Source: Gammaproteobacteria bacterium (GTDB taxonomy: Bacteria > Pseudomonadota > Gammaproteobacteria > GCA-002705445 > GCA-002716945). From it: a DNA stretch of 48,250 nucleotides. Shown in pieces: positions 35,487 through 39,818 of the stretch; position 1 is the stretch's first letter; every line of letters starts with the position of its first letter. Location of the stretch: positions 1 through 48,250 of the forward strand of contig JBJKYD010000001.1 of NCBI GenBank assembly GCA_045561295.1, in the 5' to 3' direction. The position numbers and the translations under genes were made by a program. The notes under the pieces are model-generated. The model saw only the letters and a program-made list of their open reading frames with translations. It ran no database searches and had not been told where the DNA came from.

Positions 35487-37921
<2,435 letters not shown>

Positions 37922-38018
37922 AGGGCTGAATTATAGATCATCATCATTGCAAATTAAAAAGAAATTTGTTACAAAGTAGATAGTTCATAGATTCAATCAA
38001 TACACAAAGGAGTGTTAC

Positions 38019-38462
38019 ATGGCATTAATAAAAGGTTTCCCTCATGATGGTATCGTTACCATTAATCGTGTAATTCTTAAAAAAGGTCGTACTTTAGACG
38101 AACTACAAGAAAGAGTAGCTTTGATGTGCGAAAATGTAAAAACATATCACTCAGAAACTGGTTTCATAGGGGGCATGGTTGTTTTGAACAGTGGACAAAT
38201 ATCAAATGAAGGAAGTAATTTAGGCAAAGCTTTAGAAAGTGATCTAAAGGACAAGGAAGCTCTTATAATAACTTATTGGAAATCATATGAAGAACATGAA
38301 AACTCTCATAAAAGTGATAAGTTCCAACCTTTATTCCAAAAAGTAATAGATCTTTGTGAAAATGGAAATGAAGAAATAGTCTATGATATGCTCTGGCAAG
38401 GTGAGGCATATACACCTGAGATGGCTAAAATGGCTCAGTCTGCGAAAGAAGAAAACAGCTAA
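38019..38462 (+). CDS. Uncharacterised dimeric alpha+beta barrel-like protein, putative half-length sulfur oxygenase reductase homologue
   Basis: Strong SD (AAAGGAG); VTINRVILK, MC37, GFIGG, TYWKSYEEH93ENSH97, GNEE119IVY. The ORF is secure; the function is an inference. Confidence 0.65.
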   Translation: MALIKGFPHDGIVTINRVILKKGRTLDELQERVALMCENVKTYHSETGFIGGMVVLNSGQISNEGSNLGKALESDLKDKEALIITYWKSYEEHENSHKSDKFQPLFQKVIDLCENGNEEIVYDMLWQGEAYTPEMAKMAQSAKEENS

Positions 38463-38656
38463 ACTATTGGCGGGTTCTTTTTATTAGTTCTTTTATGGCG
38501 TCCGCCAATTAACTTATGCTTTTTTAATTTTTCATCCAGTTCTTCTAGTGTTGTATCTTCTAAACGAATATCTCTAGAGAGTAAAAACTGTTTTTTAAAA
38601 TATATGACTCCGAATATTACGAGAACAATGAGAACAATATATGTGATATAATCCAT
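38459..38656 (-). CDS. Small single-pass membrane protein, hypothetical
   Basis: MDYITYIVLIVLVIFGVIYFKK hydrophobic helix plus basic tail; fills the gap between the preceding gene and the tRNA. Confidence 0.65.
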   Translation of the reverse strand: MDYITYIVLIVLVIFGVIYFKKQFLLSRDIRLEDTTLEELDEKLKKHKLIGGRHKRTNKKNPPIV

Positions 38657-38693
38657 TATTCTATAATGATAACACATAAATAAATAATATTAT

Positions 38694-38777
38694 GCCACTG
38701 TGGTGGAATTGGTAGACACGAGGGACTCAAAATCCCTTTTTCGCAAGAAAGTATCGGTTCGAGTCCGATCAGTGGTA
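38694..38777 (+). tRNA. tRNA-Leu(CAA), CCA not encoded
   Basis: Acceptor GCCACTG/CAGTGGT + A; D-arm GTGGAATTGGTAGACAC; anticodon arm AGGGA-CTCAAAA-TCCCT; long variable arm TTTC-GCAA-GAAA; T-arm ATCGG-TTCGAGT-CCGAT. Confidence 0.96.
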
Positions 38778-38786
38778 TTTAAAAAA

Positions 38787-39818
38787 ATGTTTGAGTATAT
38801 TGAAAAAAGTTTGAAAAAAAGAGGTATTGAACTAGATTCATCACAATCAGATTTGATTCATAAAATGATTGAATCTATTCAACCTGAAAAAGATTTATCA
38901 AATAAATTAGAAAATAAAGATTCTAAGAAAGGATTCTATATATGGGGAGATGTTGGAACTGGCAAAACTATAATTACAAAAACCTTTATTAATTTATTAA
39001 CAGAAAGAAAAGCATCATTCCATTATATGGAGTTTATGCAGATTATACATGATGAATTATCAAGCTTGTCTGGTAAAAAAAATCCTTTAAACATTATAGC
39101 TAGAACTTTAAGTAAACAATCTAAGGTTATATTTATTGATGAATTTCAAGTTGAGGATATATCAGATGCTATGATTATTGGAAGCTTACTAAATCAGCTT
39201 ATTAAATTAAATGTTACTCTGTATTTAACTTCTAATACACATCCGGATGAATTATATAAAAACGGACTACAGAGAGAGATATTTATTAGTGAGATGAAGA
39301 TTGTTCAAGCTTCAATTAATCTATATAAAATGGAAGGTTTGATAGATTATAGATCAAGAAATATTGTTAATATGAATAGGCAAAATGTAAATCAAAGTTA
39401 TAATGATGAAGACATTGTAAAGTTTTTGAAAAATAATTTTGAAAATTTAAATTTTAACAAAGAGTTTTGTGTTAATTCTAGAAATTATAGTTGTAAAGCA
39501 ACATCTAGCGATTTTTTATGGATATCATTTTCAAATTTCTTTAGAGAGCCAAGTGGTGACAAAGAATATATTGAGATATCTGAAAACACTGAATGGATAT
39601 TTATAAATGACTTCATTTCATGCAATGATGATTCAGTAGATATTATTAGAAGGTTTATATCATTTATAGATATTTGTTATAGAAATAAAATAAAAATTAA
39701 ATTCTTTTTTAATAACTACTCATGTAATGATCTATATACAGGTGATAAACTAAAAGAGCTGTGGCAAAGATGCAATAGCAGACTAAATGAGATGCAGACA
39801 TTGGAATATTTAATATAA
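38787..39818 (+). CDS. zapE: Cell division ATPase ZapE (AFG1 family)
   Basis: KGFYIWGDVGTGKT, FIDEFQVEDISDAMI, TSN..PDELYKNGLQR, RRFI..ID..Y, R..SRL.EMQ. Start ATG 38787; the track's 38700 start lies inside the tRNA. Confidence 0.94.
   Translation: MFEYIEKSLKKRGIELDSSQSDLIHKMIESIQPEKDLSNKLENKDSKKGFYIWGDVGTGKTIITKTFINLLTERKASFHYMEFMQIIHDELSSLSGKKNPLNIIARTLSKQSKVIFIDEFQVEDISDAMIIGSLLNQLIKLNVTLYLTSNTHPDELYKNGLQREIFISEMKIVQASINLYKMEGLIDYRSRNIVNMNRQNVNQSYNDEDIVKFLKNNFENLNFNKEFCVNSRNYSCKATSSDFLWISFSNFFREPSGDKEYIEISENTEWIFINDFISCNDDSVDIIRRFISFIDICYRNKIKIKFFFNNYSCNDLYTGDKLKELWQRCNSRLNEMQTLEYLI

Follow-up and report, generated by a model that had tools for sequence, protein, structure and literature searches.

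Here, we report on a small gene in a 48,250-nucleotide stretch of DNA (positions 1 to 48,250, forward strand, of contig JBJKYD010000001.1 in assembly GCA_045561295.1, Gammaproteobacteria bacterium), the whole of which is called the window below. The gene, at positions 38019..38462 (+), encodes a protein of 147 amino acids (aa), which an earlier note, made from the sequence alone, had described as a stand-alone, half-length relative of sulfur oxygenase reductase (SOR) and which is called mini-SOR here. Judged by its sequence, mini-SOR shows a distant but specific homology to the catalytic, N-terminal half of SOR. The strongest single result, itself alignment-based, is a set of seven columns that are invariant across stand-alone, rhodanese-fused and full-length proteins.

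The coding sequence starts with ATG, its span includes the stop codon, and it is supported by the list of open reading frames (ORFs), by homologues, by a structural model and by hhalign. A Shine-Dalgarno-like AAGGAG (38007..38012, +), read from the sequence, lies 6 nucleotides before the ATG. The reading frame and this upstream sequence were present as the earlier note had described them, and the motifs that it quoted were all found in place: VTINRVILK (residues 13 to 21), MC37, YHSETGFIGG, TYWKSYEEH93ENSH97 and LC113ENGNEE119IVY. Its residue spacings were also right, with 56 residues from C37 to H93 (55 from C31 to H86 in SOR) and 22 from H97 to E119 (24 from H90 to E114 in SOR). No obvious signal peptide was found on reading the sequence, and the single-domain mini-SOR is probably cytoplasmic.

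Upstream, queA is divergent (36902..37921; Pfam), with tgt, yajC and secD beyond it. Downstream lies a 72-aa ORF in convergent orientation (38459..38677, −), with a single hydrophobic stretch and a 4-base overlap with the mini-SOR stop codon; no Pfam family matches it, and a related ORF stands in the same place in four loci (cluster c73). Next come tRNA-Leu(CAA) (38693..38778, +), a gene for an AFG1-like ATPase and then one for a PfkB-family kinase (both Pfam). A mechanically called ORF (38700-39818, +) starts within the tRNA-Leu, and the true start of the AFG1-like ATPase is probably near 38790.

Kinship with the catalytic half of SOR

For the window protein, SOR was the top family in the Pfam scan (E 1.1e-3, covering profile positions 4-107 of 300), SulOxRed was the top NCBIfam model (E 1.8e-4), and SOR was the top match in a sequence search of solved structures (6m35, E 7.6e-3). 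Among 20 family members, 12 matched Pfam SOR at E≤0.01 and 2 matched ABM; the distant member P0164 reached 28.2 bits against Pfam SOR, above the 25-bit cut-off. A family profile searched against the PDB gave SOR for all of its best nine matches (E 1.1e-4 to 1.5e-3, SOR residues 6-131) and no ABM chain at E≤1. Plasmodium triosephosphate isomerase was also matched in the PDB sequence searches (E 2e-3 to 0.1), so E-values around 1e-3 in the profile search are not clean; kinship with that enzyme was rejected, the match being taken as composition-driven chance.

Profile-to-profile comparison (hhalign) used a reference alignment of 11 full-length bacterial SORs from the sampled genomes. The family matched the whole alignment with a probability of 91.6% (E 8.3e-7, 111 columns) and its N-terminal half with 95.3% (E 2.4e-8, 108 columns), against 4.6% for the C-terminal half; these E-values are pairwise and not database-corrected. 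The Pfam, NCBIfam, PDB-profile and hhalign results agree that the likeness to SOR exceeds chance, and the contrast between the two halves bears out the claim of a single-domain relative of the catalytic half.

The C-terminal half is absent, as had been claimed: a search for longer forms (267-2000 aa) yielded one match among 7490 candidates, a 305-aa protein at 44% query coverage. Identity between mini-SOR and SOR is 18-24%, lower than the 31% shared by two bacterial SOR clades, which points to an old lineage and no recent truncation. A recently truncated SOR pseudogene was considered and rejected, given the intact frame, retention in thousands of clusters and the low identity to SOR.

According to extracts of PMC7398979, against which the SOR residue numbering was also checked, the iron ligands of SOR are His86, His90 and Glu114; both of its activities depend on Cys31 as an essential residue, and the effect of Cys101 and Cys104 is about tenfold. 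In the HMMER and hhalign alignments, C37 (codon 38127..38129, +) pairs with Cys31, H93 (38295..38297, +) with His86, H97 (38307..38309, +) with His90 and E119 (38373..38375, +) with Glu114. Conservation was assessed in 14 full-length representatives at 50% identity. C37 and E119 were each kept in 14/14, H93 in 12/14 and H97 in 11/14, and the representatives deviating at H93 or H97 were degraded-looking singletons. The conservation of these four residues among homologues, put forward in the earlier note as a check, was therefore borne out.

A joint alignment was made of 26 proteins, comprising 10 stand-alone forms, 5 archaeal rhodanese-fused forms and 11 full-length SORs. Only seven columns were invariant, namely N16 (codon 38064..38066, +), C37, G48, W87 (38277..38279, +), H93, H97 and E119, and four of the seven are the SOR iron ligands and the essential cysteine. 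H93, H97 and E119 thus reproduce the iron-ligand set of SOR and form a putative metal site; by homology with SOR, C37, H93, H97 and E119 may line one pocket. C113 (38355..38357, +) pairs in hhalign with the first cysteine of the SOR Cys101/Cys104 pair, in agreement with the claim that the CxxC of SOR is reduced to a single cysteine. It is replaced by alanine or valine in 4 of the 14 representatives, and none of the 5 archaeal fused forms has it.

Set beside SOR (PF07682, NF047630; 2cb2, 6m35, 6qpa), mini-SOR is homologous over SOR residues ~4-130. N, C31, G, W, H86, H90 and E114 are identical and invariant in both, the first cysteine of the C101/C104 pair is often kept as C113, and the beta-hairpin insertion between strands 2 and 3 is present in both. 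The two differ in that the SOR subunit is about 300 aa long and consists of two fused Dabb halves, whereas mini-SOR has half that length and no second Dabb domain; in that only the first cysteine of the pair occurs in mini-SOR; and in that SOR is found mainly in thermoacidophiles, mini-SOR in mesophilic marine and sediment sulfur oxidisers. SOR assembles into a hollow sphere of 24 subunits (extracts of PMC7398979), whereas mini-SOR was modelled as a homodimer only. Since it departs from SOR in length and architecture, in curated score and in the cysteine pair, mini-SOR should be classed not as SOR but as a new single-domain variant in the SOR/ABM superfamily.

Predicted fold and pairing

An AlphaFold2 model built on a 20-sequence alignment had a mean predicted local distance difference test score (pLDDT) of 90.2 and a predicted template modelling score (pTM) of 0.80. 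Its elements run beta-alpha-beta, beta-hairpin, beta-alpha-alpha-beta and C-terminal helix, and the modelled fold is the dimeric alpha-beta barrel (ABM/Dabb). Mini-SOR shares this predicted fold with the ABM family (PF03992; SnoaB 3kg0, IsdG 1xbw, ActVA-Orf6 1lq9, YgiN 1r6y), whose sheet-to-sheet homodimer is predicted for it too, in the model only. It is about 45 residues longer than these proteins by virtue of the hairpin insertion and the C-terminal helix. To our knowledge, ABM proteins as a family have no conserved cysteine plus His/His/Glu set.

Structures were compared with Foldseek, with a second look at its top 1000 chains and with a wide search of 48,161 chains. All three ranked generic ABM/Dabb proteins first and SOR lower. 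The alignment was nevertheless longest with SOR (121-122 residues, compared with ~97 for plain ABM proteins), because the beta-hairpin insertion (strands 2-3) is common to SOR and mini-SOR. As SOR is itself two Dabb domains in tandem, fold comparison cannot decide between a SOR-like and an ABM-like protein.

Pairing was examined by two-copy prediction with iron included, alongside three controls. The homodimer scored an interface ipSAE of 0.87 against 0.30 for the best control, the runs shared at least 81% of contacts, and partner pLDDT was at least 85. Of proteins solved as same-chain pairs, 20 of 30 reached that mark, as did 1 of 23 whose structures are single chains. The predicted interface includes residues 37, 93, 97 and 116-133, a list that cannot separate pocket from interface. 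The proposal of a homo-oligomer thus stands as a predicted homodimer, with the proviso that ABM dimers are among the solved structures and the score may reflect likeness to them. On these models, mini-SOR probably dimerises.

Occurrence and surroundings in sulfur-oxidising bacteria

A word-indexed search returned 4148 homologous clusters (90% identity) of 80-258 aa, with only 'hypothetical protein' or 'ligand-binding protein SH3' as source names. Neither Pfam nor NCBIfam has a model of mini-SOR's own, and a protein atlas search matched only the family's own unnamed clusters. A relative is encoded at 574 loci in species-representative genomes, of which the best 80 were retained. Among these 80, the ~20 closest (L011-L029, 81-100% identical) come mostly from gammaproteobacterial assemblies. 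The rest, 66-75% identical, carry the labels Thioalkalivibrio, Thiohalophilus, Sedimenticola, Thiogranum, Thiohalomonas and Thiobacillus, with Hydrogenophilus, Acidiferrobacterales, Arenicellales, Magnetovibrio and similar labels besides. Conservation is strong, the window protein itself being 67-72% identical to Thioalkalivibrio, Thiobacillus or Sedimenticola forms. A shorter subfamily of ~130 aa (P0153-like) extends to genomes labelled Thiotrichales, Rhodospirillales, Sulfuritalea and Aquificota.

The genome from which the window comes (1.03 Mb, ~31% G+C) encodes sat, aprA, dsrA/B and soxB. The organism is thus a sulfur oxidiser of the dsr/apr/sat/sox kind, which makes the gene less odd in its context and more clearly linked to a pathway. 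The soxB of this genome (G000:C5:2817-4510) matches in two pieces (profile 1-497 and 493-555), and the second holds TAG and TAA, which could be a frameshift, a pseudogene or an assembly error.

The mini-SOR gene was found in 20 of 24 other genomes of the same family. Three of the four misses are incomplete assemblies (G006, 73%; G010, 69%; G021, 82%), and in the fourth, G016, the contig ends inside tgt, beside the expected locus, so none of them is a shown loss. In G021, neither tgt nor queA was matched by the window proteins. Loss in one genus of the family was considered and is likewise not shown, given the G016 contig end at tgt and the 82% completeness of G021. In G010, which belongs to the same genus and is 69% complete, aprA (G010:C1:52216-54010) matches in two pieces with a TAA inside the second.

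The phyletic sample was an even draw of ~300 genomes from the class, each at least 90% complete. Matches occurred in 58, about a fifth, including two fragments and one full-length SOR. Across the sample, dsrA was present in 93 genomes, aprA in 83 and soxB in 114. Among the 58 carriers, 52 had dsrA (41 of the other 242), 44 had aprA (39 of 242) and 53 had soxB (61 of 242); at least one of the three markers was present in 57 carriers and in 68 of the other genomes. Without the three doubtful rows, dsrA was present in 49/55 carriers and aprA in 42/55. Of 175 marker-free genomes, a single one carries mini-SOR (G320), and it has a sub-threshold soxB-like match and sat. In a sample of the phylum, 9 of 301 genomes had the gene, seven of them outside the class.

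Mini-SOR is almost confined to sulfur-oxidising bacteria, and the phyletic profile, which the earlier note had asked for, fits a sulfur role. Full-length SOR was found in 11 of 301 class genomes, and since 7 of these 11 also carry mini-SOR, mini-SOR is not a substitute for SOR. Contigs from 4/4 marine metatranscriptome runs (four studies) cover the gene; RNA libraries may hold DNA, so these contigs neither prove nor rank transcription and are a hint at most.

Neighbourhoods were counted at 110 loci. The divergent queA is constant in the window's lineage (29 loci). Elsewhere, the recurrent order is hsp20, degP-like protease, single-domain response regulator, mini-SOR and sat. The sat gene lies directly downstream on the same strand in 9/110 loci (with one more nearby on the other strand), a point in favour of the sulfur role that had been proposed. 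Upstream on the same strand are a degP-like protease gene in 17/110, hsp20 in 14/110, a single-domain response regulator in 9/110 (directly upstream), and a PNP-family phosphorylase with a phosphoribosyltransferase in 6/110. The nine sat loci represent two Sat lineages (46% and 86-100% identity to the reference), and two of the sampled genomes (G068 and G245) have aprA further on, within 5 kb, on the same contig and strand.

Across 33 loci, the shorter subfamily had no recurrent informative neighbour. One of its members lies 141 bases from soxB on the opposite strand (G108:C96:292-2528). In one gammaproteobacterial lineage (L143-L149, L115), the shorter form stands between a pyridine-nucleotide-disulfide-oxidoreductase-like gene and cysS, amid genes of the tetrahydromethanopterin (H4MPT) pathway (formyltransferase, GXGXG subunit, amidohydrolase and methylene-H4MPT dehydrogenase).

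A second line towards sulfur comes from distant relatives such as P0260, in which a rhodanese domain is followed by a SOR-like domain. This architecture occurs in 249 clusters of ~195 aa labelled Thermoplasmatales or Bathyarchaeota; of the 120 fused clusters listed, 119 have precomputed SOR and/or ABM matches besides rhodanese. The fused SOR-like domain keeps N, C, G, W, H, H and E. Since the sulfur on a rhodanese is carried in the form of a cysteine persulfide, the fusion suggests that the substrate is a persulfide, and its recurrence in archaea with the C/H/H/E residues kept again favours a sulfur role. The archaeal fusions resemble mini-SOR in having a single SOR-like domain, the same hairpin and the same seven invariant residues. 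They differ in their N-terminal rhodanese with a CxxGxR-type loop and in having neither C113 nor the C-terminal helix. They are 23-33% identical to the window protein and likewise uncharacterised.

Among full-length proteins, a divergent SOR-like clade of ~315 aa was observed in 6/301 genomes (L125-L130 in G164, G171, G267, G043, G210 and G077). It matches Pfam SOR at E ~1e-60, shares ~31% identity with canonical bacterial SOR and has the full set of catalytic residues; its motifs (INRV, KMC, TYWDSWEAHENFH) are nearer to those of mini-SOR than to canonical SOR motifs. One canonical SOR (L124, G094:C3) has an N-terminal extension, RRKFLK followed by a hydrophobic stretch, that looks like a twin-arginine signal, unexpected for a cytoplasmic enzyme.

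Candidate functions

The most likely role, which we consider about evenly balanced between right and wrong, is that of a homodimeric Fe/Cys enzyme turning persulfide sulfur into sulfite. Two mini-SOR copies would pair sheet to sheet and so rebuild the barrel that SOR forms from two fused halves, each rebuilt barrel carrying two Fe/Cys sites. The sulfane sulfur accepted by C37 would be in the form of a persulfide or short polysulfide, and its donor would be a carrier (rhodanese, TusA or a DsrE-type protein, for instance) or a low-molecular-weight persulfide. The 2-His-1-carboxylate iron close by would then oxygenate the C37-bound sulfur to sulfite, which APS reductase and ATP sulfurylase, or some other sulfite oxidase, would take over. 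Alongside the rDsr or sHdr route, the enzyme would thereby give persulfide sulfur an O2-dependent side path or safety valve.

Such chemistry would be like the oxygenase half-reaction of SOR and that of persulfide dioxygenase (ETHE1/PDO), for which the same conversion of persulfide sulfur to sulfite holds. PDO has the metallo-beta-lactamase fold, unrelated to that of mini-SOR, and the likeness is one of mechanism, by analogy, not of membership. From general knowledge and extracts of PMC6060420, PDO has mononuclear non-heme iron in a 2-His-1-carboxylate triad and, like mini-SOR-type domains, occurs fused to rhodanese.

Several results weigh against the proposed persulfide-oxygenating, SOR-like enzyme. 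The window protein scores below the curated cut-offs for SOR (18.3 bits against 25 in Pfam; 20.6 against 400 in NCBIfam). Its best structural match is SnoaB, a cofactor-free oxygenase (Z 14.3, root mean square deviation [rmsd] 1.5, 97 residues aligned), and Foldseek too ranks SnoaB and IsdG/IsdI first. SOR appears at rank 28 in the wide search (6qpa_A, Z 10.8) and at rank 38 in the second look (2cb2_A, Z 11.2, rmsd 2.8, 122 residues aligned), and the structural alignment runs through its non-catalytic C-terminal half (residues 150-300). The earlier note had named, as a finding that would tell against its own reading, best matches to generic ABM/Dabb barrels in which the four residues are not co-located; the first half of this is what the structure search returned.

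Gene context adds to these points. It is variable across the 110 loci; none of the genes flanking mini-SOR in the window belongs to a sulfur-related Pfam family, and the neighbours in the lineage as a whole (queA, tRNA-Leu, the AFG1-like ATPase and the PfkB kinase) have no sulfur tie. Mini-SOR is missing from 41 of the 93 dsrA-positive genomes, which makes it accessory and no core or required component of rDsr, and the sampled genomes are related, so that the Fisher P values for the phyletic counts overstate independence. Lastly, Bathyarchaeota and Thermoplasmatales are usually regarded as anaerobes, and carriers of that kind argue against a strict need for O2 across the superfamily.

This last point speaks for an alternative that we regard as unlikely, in which mini-SOR is a sulfur-handling protein and no oxygenase, its Cys/Fe site binding or relaying sulfane sulfur, sulfide or sulfite. 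Variants include hand-over to Apr/Sat, sensing of sulfite or persulfide for the adjacent CheY-like regulator, and an O2-independent, disproportionation-like reaction. The phyletic and context evidence serves this alternative as well as it serves the oxygenase, the response regulator directly upstream in nine of the 110 loci suits the sensing variant, and many carriers are labelled as genera that include denitrifiers (Sedimenticola, Thiobacillus). We know of no sulfur carrier with a Dabb/ABM fold, which speaks against it, as does the kept triad with its cysteine, which is the catalytic signature of SOR, all four residues being needed for both activities (extracts of PMC7398979).

The structural ranking, with SnoaB, IsdG/IsdI and other ABM proteins at the top, speaks for an ordinary ABM protein, such as a cofactor-free or quinol monooxygenase or an IsdG/HmoA-like heme-degrading enzyme, whose link with sulfur oxidisers would reflect shared ancestry and not sulfur chemistry. 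IsdG has the highest identity among the top structural matches (24-29%), the distant members P0164 and P0260 match Pfam ABM at E 1e-8 to 1e-11, and one source calls the fused forms 'heme-degrading monooxygenase HmoA'. This account is nonetheless improbable in our view, for the family profile finds SOR and no ABM chain among solved structures, and Pfam SOR is the commoner match among family members. The window protein reaches 12.4 bits against Pfam ABM (cut-off 23.1, E 0.18), the best heme oxygenase model is PRK13315 at only E 0.34 (11.4 bits against a 119-bit cut-off), and the PDB sequence searches returned no IsdG chain at E≤10 with the window protein or at E≤1 with the family profile. The IsdG triad is Asn/Trp/His, with no counterpart to the invariant cysteine and glutamate. 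Shared ancestry also sits poorly with carriers that span several orders and classes, yet nearly all have a sulfur-oxidation marker, and the rhodanese fusion points to sulfur.

A very improbable further reading is a stress protein against reactive sulfur or oxygen species, scavenging O2 or persulfide near Dsr/Apr and co-expressed with chaperone and protease genes. It draws on the upstream hsp20 and DegP-like protease genes, often in the order hsp20, degP, (regulator), gene, sat. That arrangement occurs in fewer than one in five loci and is missing from the window's lineage, and DegP-type proteases are regarded as periplasmic, whereas mini-SOR has no obvious signal peptide. The stress reading also overlaps with the persulfide-oxygenating enzyme, as persulfide removal is both detoxification and metabolism.

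A broader proposal is put forward tentatively, as possible although it may well prove wrong. Mini-SOR would be the first example of a widespread but so far unrecognised class of single-domain Fe/Cys enzymes of the SOR type, a living version of the half-unit from which SOR arose by duplication. In the cytoplasm of sulfur oxidisers of the Dsr, sHdr and Sox types, among them abundant, streamlined marine bacteria, it would turn carrier-bound persulfide sulfur into sulfite, and its archaeal rhodanese-fused counterpart may work without O2.

Searches of open-access papers and bioRxiv preprints, without supplementary files, turned up no account of a half-size SOR and no mention of the 'SH3' label or the accessions. 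The cytoplasmic conversion of stored or carrier-bound sulfur into sulfite is much studied in bacteria, yet mini-SOR is unnamed and without a family model, and 'ligand-binding protein SH3' is a propagated mislabel. If the broader proposal is true, textbook schemes of bacterial sulfur oxidation miss a common enzyme. If mini-SOR is active, it would offer a small and tractable model in which the SOR active site is free of the 24-mer shell, would bear on the evolution of SOR and would serve better than Pfam SOR as a marker in the annotation of marine sulfur oxidisers. It would also add an O2-linked route to sulfite and may be an overlooked step in bacterial sulfur oxidation.

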